From the IMG/VR virus record IMGVR_UViG_3300047533_000002, positions 1,303-65,302 of that record: a DNA stretch of 64,000 nt; one strand, 5' to 3'. Both the position numbers and the translations under genes were made by a program. The DNA is from a virus. The first letter of the stretch is position 1, and every line of letters starts with the position of its first letter. The notes beneath the pieces were generated by a model. It did not search any database. It was given only the letters and a program-made list of their open reading frames with translations, and was not told the DNA's origin. Shown in pieces: positions 29,606-53,300 of this stretch.

Positions 29606-30100
29606 ATGCCGATCATTGAATGCACTATCAAGCGTCCCCGTGTGGTGACCCTTGGCGACACCGCCTACCAGTTCCAGCCAGACGAACAGGGCCGTTACGT
29701 GGCCGAAGTCGAGGACGAAGATCACGCCGATCGGCTGCTTGAAATCCGCTGCTACCGCAAGCTGGCCACCACCCCTAAGCAGGTGAAGCAGCAGAAGCAG
29801 GAAGAGAAGAAGAACGAGCAGCCCACCGGCTCGGTCGATACTCGCCCTGAAGGTGCAGCCGTCGAAACCCCCAACGCTGCCAACAGCGGCAATCCGCTCA
29901 CCGGCCACGGCTTAGGCACCATCCAGCCGGACGATAACGGCGAAGGCGTCGAAGGCGGCAACCGTGAAGGCGAAGGCAACACCGAAACCCTGGATCGCGC
30001 CAAGCTGGCTGCCGAGTACGAGGCGAAGTTCAAGAAGAAGCCTCACCACTCGCAGAGCGCTGAGCGCATCAAACAGCTGCTGGAACAGGAAGAAGACTGA
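29606..30100 (+). CDS. Phage hypothetical protein
   Basis: CAGGAG RBS, ATG 29606. Confidence 0.7.
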   Translation: MPIIECTIKRPRVVTLGDTAYQFQPDEQGRYVAEVEDEDHADRLLEIRCYRKLATTPKQVKQQKQEEKKNEQPTGSVDTRPEGAAVETPNAANSGNPLTGHGLGTIQPDDNGEGVEGGNREGEGNTETLDRAKLAAEYEAKFKKKPHHSQSAERIKQLLEQEED

Positions 30101-30798
30101 TGCTCGCCAGCGACCTTTTCGACCGCGCGCAGCGGATCATGCTCGATGAAACCAACGTGCGCTGGCCGCTGCCTGAGCTGTGCATGTGGCTCAACGACGC
30201 CCAGCGCGAGGTTGTGCTGCAAAAGCCCAATGCGCTGTCGAAGACGGTCGTGATGAAGCTGGAGCAAGGCACCTATCAGGCCTTGCCCGGCGACTATCTC
30301 AAGCTGCTGCGCGTTGTGCGCAACATTGCCGCCGAAACGCCTTACCGCCAGGGCGGTCGTGCTGTGCGCATCGTCAGCCGTGAAATCCTCGATACCCAGT
30401 CGCCAAACTGGCATGACGGGTCTGTCACCCCGTTCAAGCGCGACGTGAAGCACGTAATCTTCGACGAGCAGGACCAGCGCGCTTTCTACGTCTACCCCGG
30501 CAATAACGGGGAAGGCGCGGTAGAGCTGGTCGTGTCCGTGCAGCCGGCGCCAATCAAGCCTACTGGCGATGCCAACGAGCTGGACAGCTACCGCGTCCCG
30601 ATCGAGCTGCAGGATATCTACGGCAACGCGCTGTTGGATTTCATCCTGTACCGTGGCTACGCCAAGGACGCCCAGTTCGCCGGGGCCGCAGAGCGCGCTG
30701 TGCTGCATTACCAGCAGTTCGCCAACAGCCTGGGCATGAAAGTGCAGTTGGACGTTCAGTTGTCGCCTAACGGCCCAGCACAGGTGCAGGCATCATGA
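30100..30798 (+). CDS. Head-tail connector-like protein (DUF6682-like)
   Basis: VRWPLPELCMWLNDAQRE, LLDFILYRGYAKD. Confidence 0.75.
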   Translation: MLASDLFDRAQRIMLDETNVRWPLPELCMWLNDAQREVVLQKPNALSKTVVMKLEQGTYQALPGDYLKLLRVVRNIAAETPYRQGGRAVRIVSREILDTQSPNWHDGSVTPFKRDVKHVIFDEQDQRAFYVYPGNNGEGAVELVVSVQPAPIKPTGDANELDSYRVPIELQDIYGNALLDFILYRGYAKDAQFAGAAERAVLHYQQFANSLGMKVQLDVQLSPNGPAQVQAS

Positions 30799-31427
30799 TG
30801 CTGGCCAACGCCTGGCGCGACTTCGAAGACCTGATGCCGAAGATCCTCCCGCATGCCATCCAGTGCACGGAAGGTTTCGCGCTCGACCACCTGCGCGATG
30901 CCGTTATTCGCGCCTGCGAGCGAGCCCGGCTGTGGGTTGTGGATGACGAGTTCGAGATGGGCTGCGATACCGACAGCCTGATCGTCGCCCCCAAGGGCTC
31001 GCAGCTCTACCAGATCGACCGCGTGTTCATCGGTGGCAGCACCATGCAAGCCATTACCAGTCAGCAAATGTATGGCATGCGCGACGACTGCCACCCAGGT
31101 GGGCGCCCGCACTACTTCGCCCAGGCGGATAGCGACTCCATTTCCATCTTCCCGGTGCAGCGTGGTGCCCGCATCCGCGTGCGCGCCTACCTGATCCCCA
31201 CTGCCGACGCCACCAGGGCGCCCAAGGTCGTGCTGGACCGTCACCGCGAGATGCTGGTGAACGGTGCCCTGGCTCGCATCCTGTCGGTCCCGGCCCAGCC
31301 ATTCACCAACGTCGAGCTGGCTGCCTACCGCGACAACCTGTTCGAGCGCCGCCTGGACGAAATCAGCCGCGAGTACGTGACCGGCATTCAGCGCGGCCCA
31401 CTGCGCACTCGCCCCAACTTCATGTGA
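30795..31427 (+). CDS. Adaptor/tail tubular-like protein
   Basis: LRDAVIRACERARLW, GALARILSVPAQPFTN. Confidence 0.7.
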   Translation: MMLANAWRDFEDLMPKILPHAIQCTEGFALDHLRDAVIRACERARLWVVDDEFEMGCDTDSLIVAPKGSQLYQIDRVFIGGSTMQAITSQQMYGMRDDCHPGGRPHYFAQADSDSISIFPVQRGARIRVRAYLIPTADATRAPKVVLDRHREMLVNGALARILSVPAQPFTNVELAAYRDNLFERRLDEISREYVTGIQRGPLRTRPNFM

Positions 31428-31434
31428 GGACCGC

Positions 31435-31578
31435 ATGGATTACGACTGCAACTGCAAAGAAGACGAAGTTGATGGCGTGCCTGGCACACCGATTACCGCG
31501 CTGCCGCCCCAATCCAGCGCGTGCGTGTACCTGAGCGTCGAGCCTGACGGCAGCGTGGTTGTCGAGGTGGACAATTGA
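31435..31578 (+). CDS. 47-aa small protein (absent from the ORF track)
   Basis: GAGGA RBS; MDYDCNCKEDE...VVVEVDN; TTGA overlap with the cellulase gene. Confidence 0.55.
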   Translation: MDYDCNCKEDEVDGVPGTPITALPPQSSACVYLSVEPDGSVVVEVDN

Positions 31579-33107
31579 TCGAGTACATCCTGAAGAACCC
31601 GCACGACCGGCGGGACTACGTGATCAAGCTGGACCGCTGGCTGGGGGCAAAAGAGCGTATTGCCTTCGCCAGCGCTTCCGTGCGCCCGTCCAGCATCAAG
31701 ATCGAGCGCGTTAAGTTCACCGATACCGCCGTTGTGCTGCGTCTGTTCGGCGGACAGCCGCGCGCACGCCATACGGTGCGCCTAACGATCACCACGACCG
31801 TGGGCCAGGTGAAGAACGTCGAGTTCGGCATCTACACCCAGGGCGATGCGGCCAAGGCGGTTCTGGCCCCGTTCGTCATCGGCCAGGGCTCACTGGCAAT
31901 TACTGGCGCAGGCGCCGACCAGGACTTCGCCCCTGATGTCTCGGTGAGCGGCAGCATGGTCGTGTTCGCCAGCGATTACAGCGACGAGCCTGATCCTGGT
32001 GAAGACCCGGAGCCTTCAACCGATCCTTTCCCGCTGGTCACCCAAGGGCGGCGCATCCTTCGCCCTAGCGGTGAAGCCGTCCGCATCAAAGCCGTCAACT
32101 GGTTTGGCGCCGAGGGCAGCAACCGTGTGCCTGCCGGCCTGTGGGCGGTCGGATACAAGGAGCTGATCGACAAGATCGCGGGCTGGGGCTTCAACACCAT
32201 CCGTATTCCGTTCGCTGGCAACACCTTCGATGGCTCCGATGCCTCGGGCGTCAACTTCAGCCCAAACCCAGACCTGCAAAGCGCCACGCCGGGCAAGCCG
32301 AAGAAGCCTATTGACGTGATGGACATCCTGATCAGCTACGCCACGTCCAAGGGCCTGATGATCATCCTTGACCATCATCGCCGCACGATCGGGGATGGCG
32401 CGGACGGCTCGCCTATCAGCTCGACCTACACCAAGGCCCAGTGGATCGCTACCTGGACCATGCTGGCCAACCGGTACAAGGCCATCCCGAACGTCATCGG
32501 CGCTGACCTGCACAACGAGCCGCACAATCACGACTGGCCGACCTGGGCAGGCCTTGCCGAAGAGTGCGCCAACGCGCTGCACCAGGTGGCACCGGACTGG
32601 CTGGTCTTCGTCGAAGGCGTGGGCACGTACAACGGCAGGAACTACTGGTGGGGTGGCCAGCTCGGTGGCGTGACTACCCGCCCGGTGAAGATCAACAAGC
32701 AGAATAAGTTGGTCTATTCAGCACACGACTATGGGCAGAGCGTCGGCGCCCAGCCGTGGCTTGCTACCGCCGCCCAGCCGGTCGCCGGATACCCGAACAA
32801 TCTGCCCGCTGTGTTCCAGGCTGCCTGGGGCTTCATTCTGGAACAGAACATCGCTCCGGTCTGGGTTGGTGAGTTTGGAGGACACTTCGGCATCGACAGC
32901 GGCGGCGCCGCGAAACCGAACGCCGAGCTGGAAAAGCAGTGGGCCATCCAGCTGATGAACTACCTGAACAGCAACGAAGGCCACTTCGGCTACTGGTGCC
33001 TGAACCCTAACTCGGGGGATACTGGTGGCCTTCTCCGAAACGACTGGAAGACCGCGCAGACGCACAAGTTGCAGCTGCTGTTACCCGTGCTCGCCAACAC
33101 CCAATAA
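31575..33107 (+). CDS. GH5 endoglucanase (cellulase) fused to an N-terminal phage fibre-adaptor-like domain
   Basis: VNWFGAE, GFNTIRIPF, ILDHHR, GADLHNEPH (acid/base Glu), YSAHDYG, PVWVGEFGG (nucleophile Glu). Confidence 0.93.
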   Translation: MIEYILKNPHDRRDYVIKLDRWLGAKERIAFASASVRPSSIKIERVKFTDTAVVLRLFGGQPRARHTVRLTITTTVGQVKNVEFGIYTQGDAAKAVLAPFVIGQGSLAITGAGADQDFAPDVSVSGSMVVFASDYSDEPDPGEDPEPSTDPFPLVTQGRRILRPSGEAVRIKAVNWFGAEGSNRVPAGLWAVGYKELIDKIAGWGFNTIRIPFAGNTFDGSDASGVNFSPNPDLQSATPGKPKKPIDVMDILISYATSKGLMIILDHHRRTIGDGADGSPISSTYTKAQWIATWTMLANRYKAIPNVIGADLHNEPHNHDWPTWAGLAEECANALHQVAPDWLVFVEGVGTYNGRNYWWGGQLGGVTTRPVKINKQNKLVYSAHDYGQSVGAQPWLATAAQPVAGYPNNLPAVFQAAWGFILEQNIAPVWVGEFGGHFGIDSGGAAKPNAELEKQWAIQLMNYLNSNEGHFGYWCLNPNSGDTGGLLRNDWKTAQTHKLQLLLPVLANTQ

Positions 33108-33127
33108 CGAATGCGCCCAGCGCTTGA

Positions 33128-35740
33128 ATGGAACTACAGCATATGACCGACACTGATCTGACAGCCCAGTTTGTATTTACCCTGGCCCAGGCGAGCACCC
33201 GGACAGTCACCCTTAGCTGGGAGACGCGAGACGGCACGGCGGTTGAGAACATCGACTATGTTCCGGCGTCCGGGCAGCTGGTATTCCAGCCGGGCGAAAC
33301 CAGTAAGTCCGTGACTATCCAGGTGCTTCAGCCGCCGACTGAAGAACGAAAGTTCTTCACTGTGGCAATTACTGACGCCGTGAACGCTACCGTTGACGAG
33401 ACCGAGCCAGGTCAGGTCGTGATCATGCCGAGCAACGTTTTCCGTGGGAAGCGTGGCTTCAAGGGTGACCGTGGGCAGCGGGGAATGTCGGCGTATGAGG
33501 AAGCTGTAGCCAACGGGTCGTTCACCGGGAGTTATCCTGACTGGCTCACGTACCTTTCACTCTTGCCGCTTGAGCAGCTCGCCAACAACACCGACCCAGC
33601 AAAAGGTGCAGCGCTAGTCGGGTATCGCGGAAAGAATGTGGCCAAAGCTCTGGATCGGTTACAGAGATCACCGCATCAAAACACCCACTGCAGGACAGTT
33701 TACGCGGTCTTGCCTTCGCAATTTCCAGATTACCTAAAGATTCTTACGGACGCCGGTTACACGAATGAGACTGCTTGGCTCGGCCCTGGGGCGTTTGCCG
33801 TAGATGAAGTAGCAGGGGAAATTTTCGTAGCCTTTGGCACATCATGGCAGGCCTTTACCGCAATTGCCGTTTTCGACCTTAAAACCTCGGCTTACAAGGG
33901 CTATTTCAAGCTGGTCCATGCTACGCCTGAAGGTATCGAGGTGCTCTATGATTATGGGGTACGAAAAGTATTTGTAAGCGCGGCTGACACAGGTGACCTT
34001 TACGAATACAACATCCCCACGACACCATTAGACGGCAGCATGCAGACGCATGTGGCCAGCCACGCTATGAATATGTATACCCAGTTCTCGTACCGCAACG
34101 GCATCTGGATGGTGGACGAGGCAAGCCGCGAAATCGGCGGTTCTCTTGGTCGAAATGTATTCGGTATTTACAACAAAAATTTCGAAAGAATTGGAACCTA
34201 TTACACGGACCTGCACAACTCGGGTTATATCACCTACGAAACAAACGAGCTGGCACCTTACCTGAACAAGAGGCAGGGTTTTGCCCTGGGTGACGGTTTT
34301 GTTGTGTGTTCCTACGGGGGCGCGCACGATGGTGACAGTCCGGGCACCGTGGCAAGTCATCAAGGCACGCGGATACTGTCGGCGGACGGCCAGCGCATCA
34401 AAGAGTCGATCCTGAATCCCGAAAAATTCAAAGCTCTTCTGACTCAGAGCCTTGGAAACAACGAGCATTACACGCGTGTAGAAAACGAGGGCGTAAAGGT
34501 TCTTTCGGACGGCAGCATTATCGCGCTCTATATCTACAAGGCACGGTTCAGCCCAGGCTCTAAAGATAAAGACGGCATAGTCTTACTTAAGGAATATTCG
34601 AATGACGCAAGCGCATTCGATTACAGCTCGGCTGCCACTGCACAGGGTCAGTTTAGGTTCAAGGACTTTTCCGGCGCAATTTTTCCGCGCTCGCCAGATG
34701 GCATCTACAACCCGGCAACTGGAGCGAAGTTCACGACCTTCGACCAAATCTGCAATTATATGCTTCTTTCGCACCAGAGCGTTTTCGGTTTTTACGCCAG
34801 GAATGTGTCCATAAAGGACTTTGACGGCACTGCTCTAGCGGATGGCTATTACCGGATATCGAACGTCAGCGGCAGTGTTTTCATTGTGGAAGTTTTCAAT
34901 CCTAGCGCTTCTCCGATGGCTTCCTGGGCCATCACAACTACCAACGGCGTTCGGTCGAAAGCTCCGCTAAGCGTAGGCGCAAGCATGCTGACTTTGGCGA
35001 GCAATTACGCTGACGAGTCTACCAAATTCGGCAGAATGCTAGGCGCGCACTACAAAGCAGCGGAAGAGCGCATACTTGCGCTGGATATCCAGTCGAATGC
35101 TAGCGCAAACACATTGGTAATCGGCGGCGGCAGCTCTTTGTTCAACGGTGCTACCTCGATCTTGTTTTCTACGGCTGCTACAGGCGATACCCTGGGAGGG
35201 ACTGTCAAGTGGGGGATATACGACTCCACCTTCCGCCCAGCGGCAGATAACGTCTATGCGCTCGGAGCAGTGAACGCGCGTGTTTCCCAAGTATTTGCGG
35301 GAACGGGCACTATCAGCACTTCGTGTGCAACCAAGAAGACGACTGTTCGTGGTTTTTCCGACGCCGAGATTGCTGCTTCGAAGGAGCTTGGTAAGGAAGT
35401 CGGCTTCTTCAAGTTTCTCTCCGCGATCGAAGAAAAGAAGAACGACCCATCGAAGGAGGCGCGTGAGCACTGTGGCATGACCGTTCAGCGCGCCATCGAG
35501 ATTTTCGAGGCGCACGGCCTAGACCCCTTCAACTACGGGATCATCTGCTACGACAAATGGGAAGATCAATTCGTCGAACACGCCGATGAATTCGATGATG
35601 CCGGTGAATTGATTCGGCCTGCTTACAGTGAGCTGGTGATGGCCGCAGGTGAACTCTACGGCTTCCGCGAAAACGAGCTGTATGCGTTCATCGCCCGAGG
35701 TCTCGAAGCTCGCCTAACTGCGCTGGAAGAGCGGCAATGA
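33128..35740 (+). CDS. Tail fibre/spike: Calx-beta, short Gly-X-Y stretch, unknown central domain, C-terminal S74-type chaperone
   Basis: TRDGTA...DYVPASGQLVFQPGETSKSVTIQV; GKRGFKGDRGQRG; AREHCGMTVQ..GLDPFNYGIICYDKW. Confidence 0.85.
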   Translation: MELQHMTDTDLTAQFVFTLAQASTRTVTLSWETRDGTAVENIDYVPASGQLVFQPGETSKSVTIQVLQPPTEERKFFTVAITDAVNATVDETEPGQVVIMPSNVFRGKRGFKGDRGQRGMSAYEEAVANGSFTGSYPDWLTYLSLLPLEQLANNTDPAKGAALVGYRGKNVAKALDRLQRSPHQNTHCRTVYAVLPSQFPDYLKILTDAGYTNETAWLGPGAFAVDEVAGEIFVAFGTSWQAFTAIAVFDLKTSAYKGYFKLVHATPEGIEVLYDYGVRKVFVSAADTGDLYEYNIPTTPLDGSMQTHVASHAMNMYTQFSYRNGIWMVDEASREIGGSLGRNVFGIYNKNFERIGTYYTDLHNSGYITYETNELAPYLNKRQGFALGDGFVVCSYGGAHDGDSPGTVASHQGTRILSADGQRIKESILNPEKFKALLTQSLGNNEHYTRVENEGVKVLSDGSIIALYIYKARFSPGSKDKDGIVLLKEYSNDASAFDYSSAATAQGQFRFKDFSGAIFPRSPDGIYNPATGAKFTTFDQICNYMLLSHQSVFGFYARNVSIKDFDGTALADGYYRISNVSGSVFIVEVFNPSASPMASWAITTTNGVRSKAPLSVGASMLTLASNYADESTKFGRMLGAHYKAAEERILALDIQSNASANTLVIGGGSSLFNGATSILFSTAATGDTLGGTVKWGIYDSTFRPAADNVYALGAVNARVSQVFAGTGTISTSCATKKTTVRGFSDAEIAASKELGKEVGFFKFLSAIEEKKNDPSKEAREHCGMTVQRAIEIFEAHGLDPFNYGIICYDKWEDQFVEHADEFDDAGELIRPAYSELVMAAGELYGFRENELYAFIARGLEARLTALEERQ

Positions 35741-35778
35741 TAATTGTCGCCTTCACCTTCAGCCAGCAGGGGTGACTG

Positions 35779-38508
35779 ATGAACGCACAGCACACCATCC
35801 AGCTGAGCAGAGCCGCGCGCAGCCCCGTGACTGTGGTGTGGTACACACGTGACAAGGAAGCAATTGCCGGACGCGACTACATTGCTGCGTCCGGCGCTGT
35901 CTTGTTCGAGCCCGGCGAAACCAGTAAGACAATCGACATCCAAATCATCGACCGCAAGGATGCTACTGTCGAACGATCCTTCGAAGTCGTCATCGACAAG
36001 CCGAAGGACGTTGCTCTGGGTTCTTCAGTCGCGGTCTGTCGGATCATTCCGCCAGCAGGGACGCCTGGGAACCCAGATCAGGGCGACTATCAACCGGACC
36101 CCGGCCAGCCAGGCCTGGGTCCGCTGATCAAGAACGGGCTGATCACCAACAGCTTCCACAACGTGCTGGGCCGTGGCGGGTACTTCCACGAGTATTCCGG
36201 CACGTCTGAGGGGCAAGCGGTCGCGATCGAGGGCGCGTTCCTGGCCTATGACGCGCTGGCCAAGACTAATCGAACCGAGGCCAACTGGTATCTGTCCCTT
36301 GCCCTGCAAATGTGTGCAGCGCTGGGCGATGGTGGGCGCCGTGGGCCGATGCTGCGCCAGCCGTTCCCCAGCAGCGTGGAAACCATCACCTTGCTGCACT
36401 GGCTATTCGCTGCGCGCGGGCCGATCCCGCAGCAGCGTACCAATTACGCCTATGAGGCGGACGTGGCCAACGGCAAGCTCCTGATCACCGAGCATGCCGA
36501 CGAGATTTCGCGCGTATGGATGATCTACCCGGCAGCGTCCGAGCTGCTGTACCAGAACCCGTATAGCCCGGCCTTCGACGTTGCCAGCCCTGCCGGCGAA
36601 ACGCAGGTTCCGATCACCTCCTGGAAGCTGGTCGGCGGCAAGGTTGAAGTTCCTGTGCCTGCCGGCGTGACTGGGCGCTGGAAGATCGTCTACAGCTATG
36701 GGCAGGCCGGGACCATCAAGCAAGGCGAGGCGCAAGAAGCCTGGCCGTTCTGGACGCGCCTCGCCGATGGCTACGCGGCGTGCGCACCCGACACGTTCCG
36801 CTGGTTCGACCTGGCCATGGACGAGGCTATCCAGCACGACAGCCGCGCCAGCTACTCGACGAAGTGGAAGGCGCTGCGCGATGCCATGCGCCGCACGGCT
36901 GTGCGTGGCCAGGCCATCAGCGACCTGCGCGAAGTGTTCAAGCCCATGCCTGGCTTCCCGGCGCTGCCGGCCAGCGGTGAGCCTTCGGGCATGTTCTGCT
37001 ACTCGGACCACCGCCTAGCCGGCGCGCCGCCGTCGGACATGAACCCAGGCTGGACCGGATACAACTTCTGGAGCCGGGAGAAGGACGGCAGCCTGCTTGC
37101 CACCGTGCCGGCTGCTGGCGCTGCCAACCAGGTGCAGATAGGCCGTGGCTTCAATGACTCTTGGCGCCAGAAAACTGCCTACCAGGAGGCTGATGCCTGC
37201 CTGTGGGTATCGCTGGCCGTCAGCCAGTGGCGCTCGGGCCAGAAGTGCTACGTCTACCTTTCGAGCACCAAGGCCTACAACGGGGCGACACGCTGGTATG
37301 CCGATCTGACAGCGATGCCTGGCTGGGCAGCAGCGGTCACCGCATTCGCCAGTGGCGGCGTGGCTGATTTCTTCGTGCCGATCGAGCGCTTCGTCCGTAA
37401 AGACCTGGACAATGCCCCGCTGCCGCCCGGCACCCGCCTGGAGAACTTCGGCGTGTCGGTCGAGAACGTGTCGGCCTACCAGCTGCGCCTGCGCCACCTG
37501 CGACTGGTCGGCGAGGCCAGCGAAGACGGCAAGCGCGGGAGCCAGATGCCTTACTTCCCTGGCGCCATGCCTTTCGCGATCAACGCCGACACCATCAACC
37601 AGCAGTTCGTCGGCTGGAATGGTTCGCCATTCCACGGTTACCAGCTTCCCGACTTCTGGCTGGTCCTGGAGAAGGACGCGGACAGCGTGCACCCAGGCCT
37701 GACCGTCGATGACCTGCCTGTGGCCAATGCTTCGGGCGGCCTGGTGCATCCCATTCAGGCAAAGACCACCGCAGGGGTGACAAAGCCGAAGGCGGCCTTG
37801 CTGATGGAGCAGCAGCTGCTGTTCTTGAAGCATGCCCAGGACAAGTGGCAGGCCGATGCCGGCTATGTCGGGCCGTTCGCCCATACCTTCGTGCTCAACA
37901 CCCCGGCGCGCATGAGCCTGGGCAATCCGACGCCGCACACTTGGGTCTACACCAACGACGACCCGAACACCCGCTGGGGCGGATACCAGGCGCGCGTCGT
38001 CGAGAGCCTGACCAAGGGCGCATGGCTTGCCCGCGACAAGCCGGGCTTCGCCGAGTGCGCCAGCCTGTCGATTGACATGGCGCTGGCCTGGCTGAACTGG
38101 ATTGACGGATACTGGAAGGACGGCATGGGGCCGCCGACCGATTTCGAAGACCCGCGCCTGAAGCCGGTGCAGTCGCTGTATGATGAACCGCACATCGCTG
38201 CCCTGGTGCTGCGCGCGTGCGTCTGGCTGAAGCTGGCGCATCCGGCATCTGCTGCCCTGTGCGACCGCCTGATCATCCGGTCATGGCGTTATCTGGAAGG
38301 CTTGTGGGTGACTGACGGCTTCATGGCCAACACCTGGTGCCCGAACCCCGAGACCGCCGAGTGGTTCGGGTTCTGGCACTTCGAGATCATCACATCGATC
38401 TGCGCGCTGCTGAACTACGGCGCCAGGCCAAACGCGGTGCCAGAGGCCCAGCTGCGCGAGCGCCTGCTGCTGACCCGCAAATGGCTTGAAACTACAGGAG
38501 TGAAATAG
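35779..38508 (+). CDS. Calx-beta plus putative GH8-like glycoside hydrolase tail protein
   Basis: DYIAASGAVLFEPGETSKTIDIQI; GTSEGQ motif as in GH8 enzymes; aromatic-rich C-terminus. Confidence 0.65.
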   Translation: MNAQHTIQLSRAARSPVTVVWYTRDKEAIAGRDYIAASGAVLFEPGETSKTIDIQIIDRKDATVERSFEVVIDKPKDVALGSSVAVCRIIPPAGTPGNPDQGDYQPDPGQPGLGPLIKNGLITNSFHNVLGRGGYFHEYSGTSEGQAVAIEGAFLAYDALAKTNRTEANWYLSLALQMCAALGDGGRRGPMLRQPFPSSVETITLLHWLFAARGPIPQQRTNYAYEADVANGKLLITEHADEISRVWMIYPAASELLYQNPYSPAFDVASPAGETQVPITSWKLVGGKVEVPVPAGVTGRWKIVYSYGQAGTIKQGEAQEAWPFWTRLADGYAACAPDTFRWFDLAMDEAIQHDSRASYSTKWKALRDAMRRTAVRGQAISDLREVFKPMPGFPALPASGEPSGMFCYSDHRLAGAPPSDMNPGWTGYNFWSREKDGSLLATVPAAGAANQVQIGRGFNDSWRQKTAYQEADACLWVSLAVSQWRSGQKCYVYLSSTKAYNGATRWYADLTAMPGWAAAVTAFASGGVADFFVPIERFVRKDLDNAPLPPGTRLENFGVSVENVSAYQLRLRHLRLVGEASEDGKRGSQMPYFPGAMPFAINADTINQQFVGWNGSPFHGYQLPDFWLVLEKDADSVHPGLTVDDLPVANASGGLVHPIQAKTTAGVTKPKAALLMEQQLLFLKHAQDKWQADAGYVGPFAHTFVLNTPARMSLGNPTPHTWVYTNDDPNTRWGGYQARVVESLTKGAWLARDKPGFAECASLSIDMALAWLNWIDGYWKDGMGPPTDFEDPRLKPVQSLYDEPHIAALVLRACVWLKLAHPASAALCDRLIIRSWRYLEGLWVTDGFMANTWCPNPETAEWFGFWHFEIITSICALLNYGARPNAVPEAQLRERLLLTRKWLETTGVK

Positions 38509-41251: not shown

Positions 41252-41686
41252 ATGGGGCTCAGGATTAGAACGGACAAGGGCGAGCTGCTGGATTGGGCGG
41301 CAGCTCGCTACGACGACAACGCCATCGATAGCGACACTCACGCCATCGGTATCGAGGTTGACGGCGTAGTCCAGGCCGTCGCCATGTACAATTGTTTCAC
41401 CGACATCAGCTGCAACATTCATGTGGTCAGCGACGGCGGTAAGCGCTGGGCCAGCAGAACATTTCTGCGCGAAGCCTTCGCTTACCCATTTGTCCAAGTT
41501 GGGTTGAAGCGCCTGACTGCCCTGGTTCCCGCCAAAAACACCGATGCCCTGACCCTGGACCTACGACTTGGTTTCCAGGTCGAGGGCCGAATGGCCGAAG
41601 CGACGGACAACGACGACTTGGTCGTGCTCGGTATGCTTCGGCGCAATTGCATATGGATACCGGAGGAATATCGCCATGGGCGGTAA
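41252..41686 (+). CDS. GNAT-fold acetyltransferase-like protein (podovirus tail/ejection region)
   Basis: AFAYPFVQVGLKRLTALVPAKN..LRLGFQVEG. Confidence 0.8.
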   Translation: MGLRIRTDKGELLDWAAARYDDNAIDSDTHAIGIEVDGVVQAVAMYNCFTDISCNIHVVSDGGKRWASRTFLREAFAYPFVQVGLKRLTALVPAKNTDALTLDLRLGFQVEGRMAEATDNDDLVVLGMLRRNCIWIPEEYRHGR

Positions 41687-42815
41687 AAAATCGAAGGCGC
41701 CAGCGCCGGACCCGCAAATCGGCGAAGCCGCGAAGATGCAAGCGGCAATTGCCGCTGAATGGCTGGATTTCTCCAAAGAGCAGTTTGCCATTGGCAACGA
41801 GCGGCAAAAGGGCATCGATGCGCTTACCCAGCGCGTGACCGAACAGCAGCTTGCCACGCAGGACCGCGCCAACCAATGGGCGCAAGAGGACCGCGACCGG
41901 TACAAAACTGTCTTCCAGCCGCTGGAGGACAAGTACGTCCAGGATGCAAACAACTGGGATAGTCAAGATCGTCAGGCGCAGGTGGCCGCAGAGGCGAGCG
42001 CAGACGTTCTCAACAGCGCCTCTCAGCAACGAGCAGCGTCCAAGCGCAGCATGGCAGCCATGGGCGTGAACCCAAACAGTGGGCGGTTTGCCGGCATCGA
42101 TCGCGCCTCGGAGCTTCAAACCGGACTTGCTGCCGCTGGCGCGCGAAACACCGCCCGCAACCAGGTCAGGCAGCAGGGTATGGCCATGCGTGCGGATGCA
42201 CTCAACATTGGCAAGGGGCTGCCAGCCCAAGCAGCGGCTGGCGCCGGCCTGGGCCTGACCGCAGGCAGCTCAGCGCTTAACGGAAACCTGGCCGCCAATG
42301 CCAGCTGGGGCCAGAACAACTCCATCATGGGGCAAGGCTTCCAAGGCGCTGCCGCAGGTTATGGCCAGCAAGCGAACATCCTGAATCAGCAGTATCAGGG
42401 GCAGCTCAGTGCCTGGAGTACGCAGCAGCAGGCGAATGCGGCGGGCACAGCGGGGCTATGGGGCGGCCTCGGCACCGCAGCAGGCCTTGGCATGATGGCC
42501 TTCTCGTCCAAGGAGCTGAAGGAAGACAAAACGCCAGTCGAGGGCGCGCTCGATGCCGTGAACTCAATGCCGGTCGAAGAGTGGACCTACAAGCAAGGTG
42601 TGGCCGATGAAGGTCGCCATATCGGCCCGTATGCCGAAGACTTCCAAGCCGCTACCGGCAAGGGTGACGGCAAGACCATCAACCTGATGGACGCCGTGGG
42701 CGTCAACATGAAGGCCACCCAGGAACTCAGCCAGAAGGTTGACCAGGTGGCCGATGCTGTCTCGCAGCTAGCGGGCGCTGGCATCAGAAAACCAGCTCGG
42801 AGGGCTAAGGCATGA
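41676..42815 (+). CDS. Ejection/pilot protein with C-terminal S74-like domain
   Basis: MGGKKSKAPAPDP; Ala/Gly/Gln-rich; FSSKELKED..WTYK..HIGPYAEDF. Confidence 0.75.
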   Translation: MGGKKSKAPAPDPQIGEAAKMQAAIAAEWLDFSKEQFAIGNERQKGIDALTQRVTEQQLATQDRANQWAQEDRDRYKTVFQPLEDKYVQDANNWDSQDRQAQVAAEASADVLNSASQQRAASKRSMAAMGVNPNSGRFAGIDRASELQTGLAAAGARNTARNQVRQQGMAMRADALNIGKGLPAQAAAGAGLGLTAGSSALNGNLAANASWGQNNSIMGQGFQGAAAGYGQQANILNQQYQGQLSAWSTQQQANAAGTAGLWGGLGTAAGLGMMAFSSKELKEDKTPVEGALDAVNSMPVEEWTYKQGVADEGRHIGPYAEDFQAATGKGDGKTINLMDAVGVNMKATQELSQKVDQVADAVSQLAGAGIRKPARRAKA

Positions 42816-44391: not shown

Positions 44392-47300
44392 GTGGCCAAC
44401 GCCCCTCTGTCGCCGCTTGAGAACGTACTGTCCGAACAGCAGCAATCGCTCGGCATCTCAGACTTCAAATTCAGCGAGCCCGAGCGGGCGCCTGCCACGG
44501 CCAAGGCTGGCACTGCGCCGGCTGACCTGATGCCGCTGTTCGAGGGTGCAGCCCAGAAATACAACGTGCCGGTGAATATCCTGCTGGGCTTGGCCGACCA
44601 GGAATCCCGGTTCAATCCCCGTGCACTGGGTCAGCAGACGAAGTGGGGGCGCGCCAAGGGCTTGATGCAGTACCTGGACAGCACCGCCCAGGGGATGGGT
44701 ATCAACCCTTATGACCCGGCGCAGTCGATCGATGCAGCTGCCAAGCAGCTGTCCGAGCGCCTGGGCAAGGGCTACTCGATGATCGACGCGGTTCGCGAGC
44801 ACTTCGCCGGCCCTGATCGCAAGCAGTGGGGCAAGAAGACCGAAGCCTATGGCAACGAGGTCATGCAGCGCGCTGCGAAGTTCGAAGGCGTTCCGCTGGT
44901 GGGCGCTAACGGCCAGCCCGTGCAGTCGCCGACTGGTGACATGCCGATGGCTGCCGACATGGCGCCGGGCGCCAATGCCGATGCTGGCATGCAGCCAGGC
45001 CAGCTGGACGAGGCCGGCAAGCGCAAGCTGGCCCAGGACATGCTGACCGAGATGAACGCCGCCGAGCCAGGTCGCTACAGCCTGGCTACGCCAGAGCAGA
45101 TCGCCGCCGCGCAGTCCAAGTTGCCAGGGACTGCCGATCAGGCCCAAGGCCCTGATGGTTTCTGGTCGGCGACCGGCAAGGCCCTGTCGAACATCCCCGG
45201 CAACTTCCAGGAAGCGGCAGGCGGCCTGCTGCGCTACCTGGGCGAAGGCGTGGACGACAACACCCTGTACTTCAACGCTCAAAAGCTGGGTGTGCTGAAA
45301 AAGCTTCAGGAAGACGGTGTGATCACCATGGGTCCAAGCAAGGGAGGGCTGATCACCACCCAAGTCCCATATCTGCCTGATGGCAAGATGGCCGACATAT
45401 CGAACACGGCCCGCTACCTTCGTGAGAACGCTCCGCAGCTGTTCTCCAAGGAACAGCAGGAGGTGATGAACGGCATCAAGCCGAACGCCGTCGCCCAGAA
45501 GGGTATCGACCTGGCCGCCGATGCCCGCAAGGACCGCGCCGAGATCAACCCGGACGGCCCACTTGCCAAGTACGGCAGCATGATCATCAGCTCGACCGCC
45601 GAAATGGCGCCGGCATTGCTGGCCGGCATCGTGACCCGCAACCCGAACATGACGTTGGGCATGATCGGTACTCAGGTTTACGGCCAAAGCTACGAGAAGG
45701 GCCGCGAGAAAGGCCTGAACCCTGACGAGGCCGGCACCTACGCTGCTGCCCAGGCCGCCGCCGAGGCGATCCCGAGCGCGCTTCCGGTCCATGCGATCCT
45801 GGCGCCGGGCAAGAACTTCTTCAGCGGGCTGTTCAAGGCCGGCCTGGCCGAGTCGGTGCAAGAGGGCATTACCGGTGCACTGCAAGCCGGTATCGACAAA
45901 GGCACCATCGATCCCAATATGACCTGGGCGCAAGCGCGCGAACAGATCATCGACAGCATGATCGTAGGCGGTGGCGCTGGCGTGGCCATGCGTGCCGGTG
46001 TGGACGGCGGGCGCCGTGCACGCGAAGCCATGCGCAGCCCCGAGGCTCGCCTGGGTGAAGCCATGCAAGCCGAGGTCGATAACGCGCAGCCAAGCACCAC
46101 GGCAGACGCCGAGGCTCGTGCAGCGCTTGACCCGAACACCCAGCCCATGCAGCAGCAAGCCGAGGCCGCACCGGTTGAGGTAGCGCCAGCTAAGGACGTT
46201 CCGGCCCAAGCGCAACCAGAGCAGCCTGGGCCATCGGGTCCGCTTGGCCGTGCCCTGGAACGCGCACTACCGACCGATCCCGTGGTGGAAGCCCCGCAAG
46301 TGGTGGAGCAGGCTGCCGTGGAGCAGCAGGCACCGGTCGAGCGGGTGGAAGAATCTGCCGCGCCAGCAGCCAGCGAGTTCATGGGGCCGACCGGCTCCAC
46401 CATCAACGTTGCGCCAGCAGGCGTCGAGCCGTTCCAGGCGACGATCGAAGGCTACACGGACGGCGAGGTTGTGCTGCGCGACCAGGAGGGCAACCGTTTC
46501 CAGGTCAGCCAGGCCGAGCTTCAGCCAGCCGAGCAGATACCCAAGGCCGCCGAAGAAGCCGCGCCTGCCGTTGAAGAAACCCAGCAGGCACAGCCTGATC
46601 AGGTAGCCGAAGCGGCGCCAGCCGAGCAGGAACGCGCGCAAGCCGACCAGCAGCAGCCTGCCCGTCGTGAGCCGAAAACCTACGACCAGATGGACGAGCC
46701 TGAGCTGCGCGAGCGGCTGAAGTACCTTGCCAGGCAGGCGAAAAGCACCGGCTGGGATAAGAAGCTGGTTACCGAGCGCAAGAAGGTAGAGGCAGCGATC
46801 GACGCTATCGCCGCCAAGTCCACCCCAGAAGTGGCAGAGCCGGTTGCCGAGCAGCCTGCGCAGCAGGTTGAGCAAAAGACCGATAAGCCAGCAGCAGAGC
46901 CGGTGACCGCTGAGCTGCCCCAGGCAGAGGCGCCGAAGTGGTTCGGCACCCAGGAAAAGGCTGACGCCTACGTTGCCAAGAAAAACCTGGCAGACACCCA
47001 TGAGGTGAAGCTGAACGGTCGTCGCTTCGAGGTCGTGCCAAAGGCTGAGGTTTCGCAACCTGATACAGCTGTCGCTGAGCCTGCGCCAGTGCAGGACGCC
47101 CCACAGATCAAGCCTGACCCCAATGTTACCGGGCACGTCAATCGCGCTCGCAAGCTGATGGGTGCCAATGTCGGTGATTTCGTTCGTCCATCCTCCGATA
47201 TCGGCTACTCGACCGGTGGGCGCGAGTATTTCATCAACAAGATCGACAAGAACGGCACGGTTCACGTCACCAATCAGGAAGACGGATCGAGCACCAGCTG

Positions 47301-50300
47301 GTCGCGCGCCGAGCTGGAGCGTGCATCGCGTGCAGGCGTCTCGTTCGGTCGTGAAGTGAAGTCAGAGACAAAGGCTTCTGCTGCCCCGAGCGTTGCTGAA
47401 ACGCAAACACAATCAACTGAAGCGAAACGACCGGCAGAGAGCAGCGGCGCCGAGATTGGCAGCCTCTTCCATGGCACTGCGCGAGCCTTCGATAAATTCG
47501 ACGCCGCAAGGGTTGGCAGGTCGGGCGGCGGCTTCAATCATCAGGGGCCAGGCTTCTACCTGACTGATGACGGCGACGGCTATGCCAAGTTCTTCGCCGA
47601 AAAGGCGGCGGCCAAGGTGTCGCAGATGGACAAGTTGTTGACCGAAGCGCAGGCCGACGAGCTGTTCCATAGCGGCGGAAAAGTGCTGAACGTGTCCATT
47701 GCCGAAGATGCAAAAATGCTGGACCTTCGTAAGCCCGGCGCCGATCCAGAAGTGGTGGATATGTTTTCCCGATCCGTCGGCGATAAGTCGGTCGGTGAGC
47801 AGCTGCGCAAGCGCGTTATGGACTTAGGCTATGACGGTATTGTCTTCAAAGAGCCTAATGCGATCGAGGGCTGGGCTACAAAAGACGGCGCCATTACCGC
47901 CGTGCTTTACGATGAAAGCAAGGCTGTTATCGAGAAGCCGGCCAATACGCCCGCTGCGCCATCCATCGAAGGCGATCGCATCGACAGCGAGTGGTCCCGC
48001 TTCAAATCCGAATCCGGAACCCTTGGCATTCCGCGCGAACAGATGCCGCAGATTAAGGCCGAGCACCGTGGAGCCATGGTCAACTTCCTGAACGCGCGCG
48101 ACATTGCGCATGAGGAACAGACCGTTCCAGCTGACAGCCTCAAACCGACACAGGCAGAGTTTTCTCGCGAGAAGGTGGCGCGGGCCCAGGCCTTCGAAGG
48201 CGGTGACCGCTCCATCCTAGTATCGAGCGATGGTCACGTGCTGGACGGCCATCACCAGTGGATGGCAAAGCGCGAGGCCGGCGAGCCAGTGAAGGTGATC
48301 CGTCTGGATGCGCCGATCCGTGAGCTGCTGTCAACCGTGGCCGAGTTCCCGAGCGCGACCGTTGATCAAGGCGCGGCAACCGCAAATAACCCACAGGGAA
48401 AACCTGCTAACCGGTCGGATAGCGGTATTTCCAAGCCGTCGGCGAACAAGATTTTCACCGAGGACGCCGCCGATAAGGCCCGCGCCCTGCTGCGCTCGAA
48501 GTTGACCCAACTGAATAGCGGCATTGACCCGGAAATCATGCAGGCGGGTATTACCCTGGCCGGCTACCATATCGAGAAGGGCGCCCGCACCTTCGCCGCC
48601 TATGCCAAGGCTATGACCGCCGACCTGGGCGATATCGTGCGTCCCTACCTGAAATCGTGGTATATGGGCGTGAAGTACGACCCACGCGCCACCGGCTTCG
48701 ACGGTATGAGTACCGCTGCCGACGTTGAAGCTTTCGACCTGGCCAAACCTATCGAGGAAACCCGCAATGAACCTACAGAACTGGATCAGCCAAGCCAGGG
48801 AGCACTGGAAAGAGCACCAGCCGAAGAGGTTCCAGGAGCTGAAGGCGAAGGGTCAGCTGGGGAACGCGCTTCGCGAAGCAGCGGAGCGGACGCACGCCGA
48901 AATGAGCGAGCTGGAAGCCAGCGGGATGACGACGCACGAAGCGTGGGAGATGGCGCGGGAGCAGTACCTGTTCCCGCCAGCGGAGAGCGACCAGGACGAC
49001 GAGCAGCCGGCGAGCGGCAGCCTGTTCAACGAGGCGATGGCGGTGATCCAGCCCGAGGACGAGCAGGCGGACCAGACGGAACCGACCCAAGCAGCGTAAC
49101 CGCGTCGAACGGCGTCGAGTCTGGCGACCGTGGCACCAACTACACCATCACCGAAGCCGATGCGATCGGCACGGGCGGCGCGAAGACCAAGTACAAGGCC
49201 AACGTCGAGGCAATCCAGCTGTTGAAAAAGCTGGAGGCTTCCGGGCGCCCGGCTACCGCCGCAGAGCAGGCCGCGCTCGCCAAGTACGTGGGCTGGGGTG
49301 GCATCCCGCAGGCATTCGAGCGCAGCGACAAGAGCGCCAGCAAGGGCTGGGAGCGGGAAGTTAAGGAGCTGCGCGAGCTGCTGACGCCCGAGGAATACAG
49401 CGCCGCTGCGTCGTCCACTAAGAATGCCCACTACACCAGCCCGGAAATCGTCGCCGCCGTGTGGCGCGCCGCTGATCGCCTGGGCTTCAAGGGTGGCCGT
49501 GTGCTGGAGCCTTCTGTGGGCGCCGGCAACTTCTTCGGCCTGATGCCGCACGAGCTGCGCAAGGCATCCGCGCTGCACGGCGTGGAGCTGGATCGCATCA
49601 CCAGCGGTATCGCTGCCCAGCTTTACCCTGAAGCCAAGATCGCCCGCATGGGCTTTCAGGACTACACCATTCCAGATGGTCACTTTGACATCGCCATTGG
49701 CAACCCGCCGTTCGGGCGCGAGAGCCTGTACGACGGCAAGCGCAAGGACATCAGCGGTTTCAGCATTCACAACTACTTCTTCGCCAAGAGCCTGGACGGC
49801 CTGAAGGAAGGCGGCGTCCTGGCCATGGTCGTGACCAGCCGCATGATGGACGTGCCAGGCGATAAGGCGCGCGCCTACATGGACTATCGCGCTGACTTCA
49901 TCGGGGCGATCCGGCTGCCGAATGACGCCTTCATGGCGAAAGCCGGCACCGCCGTAACCACTGACATCATCTTCATGCGCAAGCGCGGCCCAGGCTCGCC
50001 GAATGCCGGTGAGAACTGGATGAAGGTGCGCGATTACACCGACAGCGACGGCAATACCGTGCCGCTGAACGAGTATTTCCACGATCACCCCGAGAACATG
50101 CTGGGTGACTTCGGCGCCTACGGGTCCATGTACCGCGACGGTGAGCCGGCACTTGTTGCCCGAGCCGGCCAGGACACGGCGAAACTGCTGGATCAAGCCA
50201 TTGCGCGGCTGCCGCTTGCCGAGGGCACTGTGGAGCCCGTCGTTAAGCCTGAAACCGCCGCGACCGTGCGCGCTGATAACGTGCGTGTCGGCTCCATGTT

Positions 50301-53300
50301 CGTTGACGGCGACACCGTGAAGGTTCGCGGGGATGACGTGCTAGGCGAAAACACTGCCGAGGCCGTCACCTTCCCGAGCGACAAGGCCCGCGATCGAGTG
50401 GTTGGCATGATCGGCATGCGTGACCAGCTGGCAACCCTGCGCGGCCTGCAGCTGAACCCGAACGCCACCGAGAAGCAGATCGCCACCGCTCGCAAGGCGC
50501 TGAACAACGCCTATGACGCCTTCGTCAAGGAGAACGGCCCGATTAACCTGGACGCCAACAAGCGCTTGTTCAGGGATGATCCATCCTGGCCGCAGCTGTC
50601 CGCCCTGGAAGATGGTTTCGACAAGGGTATCTCTGCTGCCGTGGCCAAGAAGACCGGCGAAGAGGCACGCAAGCCAAGCGCCCAGAAAGCCGCGATCTTC
50701 ACCAAGCGCACCCAGTCGCCATACCAGGCACCCGAAAGCGCCAGCTCAGCCAAGGACGCCTTGGTATCGTCGCTGGCCGAGACTGGCCGCGTTGACCTGG
50801 GGCTTATGGGCCGCCTGTACGGGAAGAGCGAAGACGCCATCGTCAAGGAGCTGGGCGACCTAGTGTTCCAAGACCCTGCCAAGGGCTACGTTACCCGTGA
50901 CGAGTACCTGTCTGGCAACGTGAAGGCTAAGCTGGCCCAGGCACGCCAGGCTGCACAGAAGGATGCCGCGTTCGCCCGCAACGTCGAGGCGCTGGAGGCA
51001 GTCCAGCCGCGCGACATCGAGGCCGTGGATATCAACGTGAAGCCGGGCGCCGCCTGGATACCGAACGATACCATGGGCGGCTTCGCCAACCACATCGGAG
51101 AAGGCGGCAAGGCCCGTGCTATCTACAACCCGGCCACCGCCAAGTGGTCGATCCTGGGCCTGGATTCCAGTCGTTCGGCAGATGCGCGCTGGTCTACCGG
51201 TCGCGTCGATCTTAAATCCATCCTGGAGGCTGCCGCCAACCAGAAGACGCTGCAGGTCTTCGATAGCCATTCCGACGGCACCCGCACGCTCAACGAGACC
51301 GAAACCCAGCTTGCCAATGACAAGGTAAACGCGGTCAAGGAGGAATGGAGCCGCTGGGTCTGGGCCGATGACGCCCGCCGTGAGCAGCTTGCCGGCATCT
51401 ACAACAACGTGTTCAACACCAACGTCGCCCGCGAGTACGATGGCTCGCACCTGACGTTCCCTGGCAAGGTCGGGAACGACATCATTGCCCTGCGCCCGCA
51501 CCAAGCCAATGGCGTGTGGCGCATTGTCCAGTCTGACACCACCCTGGCTGACCACGTTGTTGGCGCGGGCAAAACCTTCACGCTCATTGCCGGCGCCATG
51601 GAACTGCGCCGCATGGGTCTGGCCAAGAAGCCGATGTTCGCCGTGCCGAACCACCTGGTCGGCCAATGGGCCGCCGACTTCACCAAGCTTTACCCAGGCG
51701 CCAACGTGCTGGCCGCGACCAAGAAGGACTTCGACAAAGAAAACCGCAAGCGCCTGTTCGCCAGGATTGCGACCGGCGATTGGGATGCGGTGATCGTCGC
51801 GCATTCCAGCTTCGGCAAGGTTGAGGTCGAGCCCAAAGAGCAGGCCGCGTTTATTGAAGAGCAGATCGCCGACCTGGACAGCTCGATCGAACTGATGCGT
51901 CAGACCGATGGCGAGAAGAGCCGGAACGTCAAGGACGTGCAGAAGCGGCGGGATGCGCTGCGCGAGAAGCTGAAAAAGCTGCTGGACGCCGACAACAAGG
52001 ACGACAACCTGTACTGGGGCGAGCTGGGAATCGACGCCCTGTTCGTGGACGAGGCGCACGAGTTCAAGAACCTGGCGTTCTCCACGTCGATGAACCGCGT
52101 GGCCGGCCTGGGCAACCAGCAGGGCAGCCAGAAGGCGTCCGATATGTTCCTCAAGGTGCGCCAGGTGCTGAACGCCACGGGTGGGCGCAACGTCGTTTTC
52201 GCCACCGGTACGCCGATCAGCAACACCATGGCCGAAATGTACACCATGCAGCGCTACCTGGATTACTCGAACCTGAAGGCGCAGGGCATCAATCACTTTG
52301 ATGCCTGGGCGCGCATGTTCGGCGAGGTCGTGACCGATTGGGAACTGTCGCCATCCGGCAAGTACAAGATGAACAGCAGGTTCGCCAAGTTCGTGAACAT
52401 GCCCGAGCTGATGCAGCGGTACACGCACTTCGCTGACGTGATCAATCGCGACGACATCAACCGCATGCTGGCGTCCCAGGGTAAGAAGCTGCCCGTTCCG
52501 AAGCTAGCCGGGGGCAAGCCGACCAACGTTGTAGTGCCGCGCAGCCCTGAGCAGGCCAAGTTCATCGGGGAGCCGATCAAGGACGAGGCTGGCAACGACA
52601 CCGACAACTACCCGCAGGGCTCGCTTGTCTGGCGCTCGGAGAACATGCCGAAGAAGGCCGAGAAGGGCGCGGACAACATGCTCAAGATCATGGGCGATGC
52701 GCGTAAGGCCGCGCTCGACATGCGCTTGATCGATCCGAGCTACCCGGATTACCCGAACAGCAAGGTCAACCACGCGGCTGGTCGCATCAAAGCCATCTAC
52801 GACGAATGGCATGCCGATCGTGGCACCCAGCTGGTGTTCATCGACCTGTCCACGCCGAAGAACGCGAAAGCCGCCGAGGCTGCACGCCTGCGCGACCTGG
52901 TTGAGCGTGCCGAGCAGGGTGATGAACAGGCCATCACTGACCTGGATAAGGTGAGCCCGGACGAGATGATGGCCCTGGACGGCGATTTCTCTGTCTATGA
53001 CGACCTGAAGCAGAAGCTGATCGATCGCGGCATTCCTGAAGCGGAGATCGCCTTTATCCACGATGCCAAGACCGAGCTGCAAAAGGACGAGCTGTTCGGC
53101 AAGGTCCGGTCGGGCCGCGTTCGCGTGCTGTTCGGCTCAACCGCCAAGATGGGCGCCGGCATGAACGTACAGGACCGCCTGGTCGCACTTCATCACCTGG
53201 ACGCCCCGTGGCGGCCGTCCGACCTGGAGCAGCGAGAAGGCCGCATCATCCGCCAGGGCAACAAGCTGTACGAGCGCGACCCGGAAGGGTTCGAGGTGCG

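Follow-up and report, generated by a model that had tools for sequence, protein, structure and literature searches.

Podophages related to Erwinia phage PEp14 carry, in this order, a tail-collar domain fused to a domain of glycoside hydrolase family 5 (GH5), a variable spike and a protein in which a Calx-beta domain precedes a barrel. The three genes have been in GenBank since PEp14 (2011), where they are annotated as cel, dpo and hypothetical (Calx) protein, and their order recurs in the named genera Pavtokvirus and Lastavirus. In the Lastavirus ZX1, ORF59 (GH5) and ORF60 (the variable spike) have been experimentally shown to be receptor-binding proteins; ORF59 binds cells and forms halos, antibodies abolish infection, and the protein mutates to change receptor (PMC11795761). 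A survey of the depolymerases with which Erwinia phages attack exopolysaccharide (EPS) lists Calx-beta N-termini beside those of the T7-tail and Tail_spike_N types (PMC10194208). Concerning Erwinia phage S6, Knecht et al. 2022 (via PMC9544554) report that gp095 degrades carboxymethylcellulose and that the phage needs bacterial cellulose for infection, and accounts of phage GP4 (Zheng et al. 2023, via PMC12609058 and PMC13730344) describe gp77 as an immunoglobulin (Ig)-like collar that surrounds the connector and carries the fibres. Here we compare with these systems a block of three tail genes (genes 1 to 3) found in a window of 64,000 nucleotides, the whole stretch of DNA that was analysed, which spans positions 1,303 to 65,302 of the IMG/VR virus record IMGVR_UViG_3300047533_000002; coordinates below are those of the window.

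We consider it probable that this block is the host-recognition and adsorption apparatus of a temperate podophage similar to PEp14 and Bcep22, integrated in a Hyphomicrobiales chromosome. This judgement covers the explanation as a whole, that is, an adsorption apparatus with a GH5 enzyme on its collar (gene 1), an exchangeable fibre (gene 2) and a barrel that is probably a glycanase (gene 3). The record, 67.6 kb in length, is classed as a provirus. Of 401 genomes sampled from the order to which Aquamicrobium belongs, 377 share sequence with the right flank of the window (nucleotide identity at best 77%), and these matches place the host in the Hyphomicrobiales (Rhizobiales). Upstream of the block lie a P22-type portal gene, a capsid gene and two adaptor genes of SU10 type; the three genes follow the adaptors, all on the plus strand, and precede a small tail-fibre-like gene and a gene similar to gp67 of Bcep22. 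The predicted layout is that of the Bcep22/PBC5/PEp14 podophage group, and DNA and protein comparisons both give as nearest cultured relatives the Erwinia phages PEp14, Pavtok and Stean, the Serratia phage Parlo and the Klebsiella phages SopranoGao, LASTA, SJM3 and ZX1. The module is already known from cultured phages, since its order is that of PEp14, ZX1 supports two of its three positions and the pairing seen in S6 has been published, and what is new here is the host group and a different receptor cassette. The idea of a cellulosome-like tail, put forward in the original prediction, is accordingly not a new one: besides the PEp14 annotation, S6 carries a GH5 protein together with a Calx-beta-GH48 protein.

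Gene 1 is identified by its domains as a tail-borne GH5 endoglucanase, complete and fused behind a phage-type N-terminal domain as had been proposed. The profile PF00150 matches amino acids (aa) 172-480 with 156.9 bits (curated cut-off 23.5), and the NEP and GEFG motifs align with the same motifs of PDB entry 8fc0, including both catalytic glutamates, E315 in HNEPH and E433 in GEFGG. Solved endoglucanases other than 8fc0 are also matched, namely E1 of A. cellulolyticus (1ece, E 4e-73), EngXCA of Xanthomonas (4tuf, E 3e-55) and EGPh (E 1e-48); we take these enzymes to belong to subfamily GH5_1, and gene 1 is hence probably a member of it. The catalytic domain is 46% identical to that of S6 gp095. 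In front of it, behind an acidic and proline-rich linker, the collar profile PF23148 is matched with 55.9 bits (cut-off 27), and aa 7-85 span positions 1-82 of the 84 in the profile. The same collar domain stands alone as the 93-aa 'virion-associated component' gp17 of Ochrobactrum phage POI1126 and as a 118-aa protein of a metagenomic relative (L013), and for this reason the GH5 domain can be seen as an add-on to a structural tail protein. By analogy with GP4, a collar ring would tie the fibres to the tail also in this phage, and through the fusion the cellulase domains would then encircle the tail as a ring.

The three genes are real and consecutive, but the start originally given to the first one, at 31435, is wrong: that position is in another frame and begins a separate open reading frame (ORF) of 47 aa. 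The TGA stop of this ORF overlaps the TTG start of gene 1 at 31575 (aaTTGAtc), and with this start the GH5 protein has 510 aa. The product of the small ORF (MDYDCNCKEDE...), placed between the second adaptor gene and gene 1, has a cysteine-rich and acidic N-terminus; it had no match in Pfam or PHROG and no significant match to the N-termini of the GH5 proteins of PEp14 or Stean.

Genes 2 and 3 both begin with a Calx-beta domain, as predicted, each well above the threshold of PF03160 (44.2 and 43.4 bits versus 27). Aligned with each other over 71 aa, the two domains share 42% of their residues (E 3e-17) and are by this comparison paralogous; that of gene 3 superposes on CBD1 of NCX1 (3gin) with Z 12.5 and a root-mean-square deviation (rmsd) of 1.9. 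Cases in which a single phage has a Calx-beta domain at the start of two tail proteins that are otherwise unrelated are found here, in PEp14, in Stean, in a prophage of Agrobacterium (L012) and in L013, and gp094 of S6 also starts with one. The anchor can remain nearly identical while the body behind it is swapped, as between gene 2 and its counterpart P0124 described below, and the same bodies occur elsewhere with other anchors (in contig L014, phage N133 and Alteromonas phages). The earlier suggestion that Calx-beta is a reused docking module fits these comparative data. Either domain would then fit, like a plug that can be exchanged, into the same kind of tail socket, for which the adjacent collar protein is the obvious candidate partner.

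Concerning gene 2, the description as a fibre with an S74-type chaperone holds for the chaperone itself, which matches that of T5 pb1 (4uw8, E 5.7e-41; Z 11.9 and 47% identity in structural alignment), 7y5s (E 4e-39) and 3gw6 (E 3e-12), while the Pfam model Peptidase_S74 (PF13884) scores 17.5 bits, under its cut-off of 22. The inclusion of this gene in a 'three-gene glycanase module' did not survive. The centre of the protein is modelled by AlphaFold (pLDDT >90) as a five-bladed propeller, which Foldseek relates at E 1e-11 to 1e-10 to the receptor-binding proteins (RBPs) of phi11, 80alpha and P68, and structural alignment gives Z 21.6 to the RBP of phi11 (5efv) and Z 18.6 to that of NF5 (9m7x). 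Sequence and fold searches found no evidence of a glycanase in gene 2; this role was rejected, and so was the PHROG label 'glycerophosphoryl diester phosphodiesterase', as the stretch matched is the RBP-type propeller. A short collagen-like G-x-y run (aa ~107-119) stands behind the Calx-beta domain, and the true start of the protein may be Met6.

The slot occupied by gene 2 is a variable one. An exact look-up of its product in public contigs gave no match. Its counterpart P0124 belongs to a sister phage on a 49.5-kb contig that also carries a copy of gene 3 with 92% identity; the two fibres are ~95% identical over aa 6-135, ~25-30% in the centre and ~70% in the chaperone. The G+C content falls to 48-55% across the swapped part (window 33800-35800), versus 60-66% on either side, and this dip together with the divergence from P0124 suggests that the cassette was acquired recently. 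At this place PEp14 and Stean have an EPS depolymerase that starts with a Calx domain, and ZX1 has its capsule depolymerase ORF60. We therefore read gene 2 as a receptor-binding fibre in an exchangeable slot, with the modelled propeller as the presumed receptor-binding head: the propeller would bind a strain-specific surface glycan, and the C-terminal chaperone would fold and trimerise the fibre and then probably be cut off. Two side observations concern this slot. The propeller contains a motif R-x-E-N-E-G (P0001 aa 450-456, window ~34475-34495) whose E452, E454 and G455 are invariant in 40 homologues, so that the propeller may have a site for metal binding or catalysis. In the prophage of Agrobacterium tumefaciens (L012:5405-7404) the slot holds only a Calx-beta protein of 185 aa followed by several small ORFs, so that the receptor cassette appears truncated or replaced, while the collar-GH5 and Calx-barrel genes stay.

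The part of the module most worth testing is the barrel family of gene 3. The 909-aa protein carries, as originally noticed, the motif TSEGQ (aa 142-146), and its model, built from 32 homologues (pLDDT 81, pTM 0.72), has ~12 long helices interrupted by two beta inserts. The expectation that it would model as an (alpha/alpha)6 barrel was borne out. In an exhaustive structural comparison with VIA-align the nearest solved fold was CPF_2247 of family GH126 (3ren, chain 3ren_B; Z 24.5, rmsd 3.6, 310 of 332 residues aligned, 13% identity), followed by the GH8 enzyme PssZ (6r2m; Z 20.6, 280 aligned), YPO2471 (7tem, no family given; Z 20.3-20.5, 337-338 aligned), YteR of GH105 (1nc5; Z 20.2, 312 aligned), cellobiose 2-epimerases (Z ~20, 334-344 aligned), GH48 cellulases (Z 18-19, 380-395 aligned) and a GH8 xylanase (1h12; Z 17.5, 316 aligned). 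The second insert resembles CBM11 (1v0a; Z 11.9, 152 aligned) and 7zkq_A (Z 13.9). The model of gene 3 in the ESM Atlas retrieves phage tail proteins first and then GH48 clusters (TM 0.43-0.44). Foldseek searches with the whole 909-aa model against pdb and afdb_swissprot gave noisy multi-domain matches (Cry toxins, neuropilins) and were disregarded.

This likeness of fold is not accompanied by a relationship at the sequence level, and the assignment of gene 3 to GH8 could not be upheld. Identity of the barrel to its GH8, GH48 and GH126 neighbours is 9-14%. Searches of the PDB with phmmer and with a profile matched only the Calx part and not the 3ren chain, and neither PF01270 (GH8) nor PF02011 (GH48) matched any of 32 family members, even at E 10. 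With hhalign, the extended barrel alignment reached a probability of <1% against a 10-sequence GH8 alignment; against BcsZ only a 16-residue motif was paired with TTSEGQ (residues 52-57), TTSEGQSYGMFSALAA, at 2% probability; and against gp094 of S6 the Calx domain alone was aligned. Membership of GH8, GH48 or GH126 was thus rejected by all these tests, and the closeness to GH126 is, as judged from the model, a likeness of fold and not membership. As regards the candidate active site, the structural alignments begin at model residues 112-114, which correspond to residue 23 of Cel48F, 55 of CelS, 45 of the GH8 xylanase and 53 of 3ren. With E55 in Cel48F, E87 in CelS and E78 in the xylanase as catalytic acids, these offsets would put each template acid within ~1 residue of E144, an argument from offsets and not a residue-level superposition. 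Candidates for a base of GH8 type are the invariant D338, in A-P-D-T at the N-terminus of a helix, and D728.

Residue conservation was evaluated in 39 family sequences, down to ~25% identity. G141, T142 and G145 are invariant (39/39), and S143, E144 and Q146 are each present in 38/39; E320, D338, D382, D472, W325, W733, N730 and R739 are likewise invariant (39/39) and D728 occurs in 38/39. The only member without E144 is P0013, 54-55% identical to gene 3, which reads TAAGQ and in which D728, H805 and E869 are changed too. Such joint changes would be expected if one shared site had been lost, and P0013 may be an inactivated variant of the barrel that only binds. Because GTSEGQ and the acidic residues are nearly invariant and are lost together in P0013, we regard gene 3 as more probably an enzyme than a scaffold. 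E144 would be its general acid, in a barrel that resembles the inverting GH8, GH48 and GH126 glycanases.

The family is widespread and modular, the same body being found behind different N-termini. Among the scored candidates 207 matches were obtained at E 1e-5, mostly on contigs of ~60 kb. The barrel lies behind a Calx-beta domain in the podophage lineage; in a metagenomic siphophage contig (L014:9001-12765) and in Klebsiella phage N133 the barrel protein follows the tape-measure gene, in the position of Dit; the 'megatron' protein of Alteromonas siphophages contains it, as does the long tail fibre of an Alteromonas phage similar to T7. DUF2460 is weakly matched by four members of the alignment (best E 0.0018). 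In prophages of Roseibium, Aquamicrobium and Novacetimonas the barrel has no Calx domain and no GH5 gene within 10 kb. The megatron, N133 and T7-like contexts are those of L026:5164-9693, L027:5968-9495 and L028:5458-10032. The searchable literature apparently describes neither the fold of this 'CalX-like' protein nor its invariant GTSEGQ site, nor how widely it is spread over tail architectures.

The fold of gene 3 does not fix its substrate, as GH126, PssZ and the other neighbours show. Across phages of Erwinia, Klebsiella and Serratia and prophages of alpha-proteobacteria the barrel is 47-51% identical, the GH5 domain ~48% and the gp67-like protein 55%, while the middle gene is replaced. 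Since the barrel and GH5 are conserved about as well as core virion proteins, the polymer is presumably one that the hosts share. Moreover BcsB, a marker of cellulose synthase, was present in four of the five genomes with a barrel prophage and in 9 of 61 evenly sampled from the phylum (G001 included), with a hypergeometric tail of ~0.003. On account of the shared polymer and of this enrichment, cellulose is the leading candidate substrate. In our reading gene 3 is a conserved core appendage, and its barrel, with the insert similar to a carbohydrate-binding module, most likely cuts a beta-linked polysaccharide that many hosts have.

Several alternatives were weighed against this probable glycanase. 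It is quite possible, though short of likely, that the barrel acts on another conserved envelope glycan, such as a periplasmic or capsular beta-glucan, a sugar linked to the core of lipopolysaccharide, an EPS of succinoglycan type or peptidoglycan, and that GH5 alone handles cellulose. Its fold neighbours span GH126, the GH8 enzyme PssZ, GH105/88, GH76 and epimerases; it is independent of GH5; and it is found in elements of Alteromonas, Bryobacteraceae and Roseibium and fused to Dit, megatron and T7-type fibres. However, the barrel is highly conserved although its hosts have different capsules and O-antigens, which points to a widely shared polymer, for which cellulose fits, the hosts are enriched in BcsB, and peptidoglycan is already covered by a separate SLT domain in the giant ORF downstream.

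The reading originally proposed, in which GH5 and the barrel are two cellulases of different folds, one endo-acting and one processive, that tunnel through cellulose biofilm as a cellulosome-like tail, appears doubtful. The GH5 assignment of gene 1 is solid, the neighbours of the barrel include GH8 and GH48 cellulases, TSEGQ matches the acid motif of GH8, the second insert resembles a beta-glucan-binding module, and BcsB is frequent in the hosts; S6 pairs GH5 with Calx-beta-GH48 and needs cellulose (PMC9544554). On the other hand, gene 3 belongs by sequence to neither GH8 nor GH48, its top neighbour in GH126 was deposited as an alpha-amylase, PssZ cuts an exopolysaccharide other than cellulose, the barrel is found without GH5 in several prophages and in phages whose collar protein has no GH5, and no scaffoldin- or dockerin-like system was seen. 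Of the two cellulases claimed, that of gene 1 is supported and that of gene 3 is not.

A bolder proposal is that the Calx-barrel proteins are an undescribed family of phage-tail glycoside hydrolases, inverting beta-glycanases that are kin of GH8, GH48 and GH126 at the level of fold, use GTSEGQ as acid motif, move by exchange of their N-terminal anchors and act as partners of the collar-GH5 on cellulose as a shared primary receptor; taken with all its parts it is speculative, and we think it unlikely. A non-catalytic barrel that keeps a glycanase fold as a structural or lectin-like component of the tail is improbable, for although many phage tail modules only bind, no CAZy family was matched and P0013 has lost the glutamate of TSEGQ, the motif and five further acidic residues are nearly invariant down to ~25% identity and several positions change together in P0013, like the loss of one active site.

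Some observations weigh against the explanation that we prefer, i.e. an adsorption apparatus with a probable glycanase in gene 3. No sequence-level link joins gene 3 to any CAZy family, the motif match to BcsZ having the low probability given above, and (alpha/alpha)6 barrels include epimerases, lyases and non-enzymes, whose Z values are lower by only 4-5 units. That E144 would lie in a cleft is deduced from the offsets of the alignments and the numbering of the catalytic residues in the templates. The occurrence of the barrel in prophages without a nearby GH5 gene weakens an obligate partnership of two cellulases, and the BcsB enrichment comes from five genomes, with genome size and completeness as confounders. 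Finally, the conserved acidic residues E452 and E454 may leave room for an enzymatic role of the propeller of gene 2.

The features of the block and of its immediate surroundings are collected in Table 1. No promoter-like or terminator-like sites above chance were found inside the block. The annotation of the gene on its 3' side is that of an internal virion or structural protein, and not of a demonstrated hub, as the original 'tail hub' would have it. Farther downstream there are a coiled-coil protein, an acyl-CoA N-acyltransferase (phrog_4470, E 2e-45) placed among the tail genes, another virion protein that has a chaperone domain of the Peptidase_S74 family (PF13884, E 1e-9) and an ORF of 4,392 aa (window 44392-57570), whose relatives carry SLT, helicase and methylase domains. 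As listed, the ORFs of the acyltransferase and of the S74 protein (together window 41252-42815) overlap by ~120 nt, and the second probably begins later than 41568.

Table 1. Position of the three tail genes, their domains and neighbouring features in the window
Feature	Position	Strand	Basis or remark
SU10-type adaptor 1	30100-30798		PF24175, E 1e-34
SU10-type adaptor 2	30795-31427		PF24175, E 2e-10
47-aa ORF	31435-31578	+	separate from the GH5 gene
Gene 1, 510 aa, tail-collar domain and GH5 endoglucanase	31575-33107	+	PF23148, PF00150, PDB matches
Gene 1, collar/fibre-tail-adaptor domain (aa 7-85)	31593-31829	+	PF23148 (GP4 gp77)
Gene 1, GH5 catalytic domain (aa 150-505)	32022-33089	+	PF00150 E 1e-45; 8fc0 E 1e-86
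Gene 1, acid/base E315 codon	32517-32519	+	HNEPH at aa 313
Gene 1, nucleophile E433 codon	32871-32873	+	GEFGG at aa 432
Gene 2, 870 aa, receptor-binding fibre (presumed), variable slot	33128-35740	+	domain and fold matches
Gene 2, Calx-beta anchor (aa 9-84)	33152-33379	+	PF03160 44.2 bits
Gene 2, five-bladed beta-propeller (aa ~185-500)	33680-34627	+	model and fold matches
Gene 2, C-terminal intramolecular chaperone (aa ~729-870)	35312-35737	+	T5 pb1/endosialidase type
Gene 3, 909 aa, Calx-beta anchor and (alpha/alpha)6 barrel, probable glycanase	35779-38508	+	
Gene 3, Calx-beta anchor (aa 1-92)	35779-36054	+	PF03160 43.4 bits; 3gin
Gene 3, (alpha/alpha)6 barrel (aa 114-909), two beta inserts	36118-38505	+	structural alignment
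Gene 3, TSEGQ (aa 142-146), start of first long barrel helix	36202-36216	+	E144 candidate general acid
Gene 3, beta insert 1 (aa ~216-335)	36424-36783	+	model secondary structure
Gene 3, beta insert 2 (aa ~382-581), jelly roll of CBM11/CIA30 type	36922-37521	+	structural matches

Taken together, the adsorption apparatus of this podophage lineage is put together from parts that can be exchanged: a collar that can carry an enzyme, a Calx-beta plug common to unrelated appendages, a receptor slot that evolves fast and a spike that is conserved and resembles an enzyme. Of practical interest is gene 3, whose clear candidate active site could be probed with few point mutants. Hundreds of its relatives, annotated only as 'CalX-like' or 'tail', occur in phages of Erwinia, Klebsiella, Serratia, Agrobacterium, Alteromonas and others. 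If it is a glycanase that acts on cellulose or some other widespread matrix polymer, gene 3 could serve as an enzyme against biofilms, and this would also explain why it stays the same when the spike beside it varies with the serotype of the host.

Compared with known systems, the barrel of gene 3 shares its fold with BcsZ, PssZ, Cel48F and CPF_2247 (GH8, GH48 and GH126), and BcsZ, as gene 3, has T-S-E-G-Q at the start of its first inner helix, although hhalign gives the pairing only the 2% reported above; gene 3 differs from these enzymes by its two large beta inserts, its N-terminal Calx-beta domain and its virion context. The propeller of gene 2 is like the five-bladed 'platform' of phi11 Gp45, 80alpha and P68, at only 8-10% identity, and its C-terminal chaperone is like that of the L-shaped fibre of T5 (pb1), while the Calx-beta anchor distinguishes it from these proteins and the Gram-negative host from the staphylococcal RBPs. 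In GP4, gp77 (PDB 8JOU) has the PF23148 domain and its gene directly precedes the fibre genes, as here; the collar domain is fused to GH5 in this phage, whereas it stands alone in GP4, POI1126 and L013. S6 belongs to an unrelated N4-like phage family (Schitoviridae) and has adjacent GH5 and Calx-beta-led (alpha/alpha)6 proteins, as does this locus. Its gp094 is however a true GH48 (PF02011, E 1.5e-198), while gene 3 matches no GH48 model, and its gp095 has Ig-like N-terminal domains instead of a collar of gp77 type.

The closest systems are those of PEp14, Pavtok and Stean (Pavtokvirus) and of LASTA, SJM3, SopranoGao and ZX1 (Lastavirus), which have the same order of adaptors, collar-GH5, Calx-led variable spike, Calx-barrel, small fibre-like gene and gp67-like gene, at the identities given above; the order of GH5, variable slot and Calx-barrel is also that of the Agrobacterium prophage. 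With respect to these relatives, the GH5 protein is shorter here (510 aa versus 619-843 aa) and lacks both the Ig-like middle domain, weakly seen in PEp14, and the C-terminal region of ZX1 ORF59. In the variable slot these relatives have a beta-helix depolymerase, and here its place is taken by the propeller fibre with its chaperone of T5 type; unlike them, this phage is integrated in an alpha-proteobacterial host.

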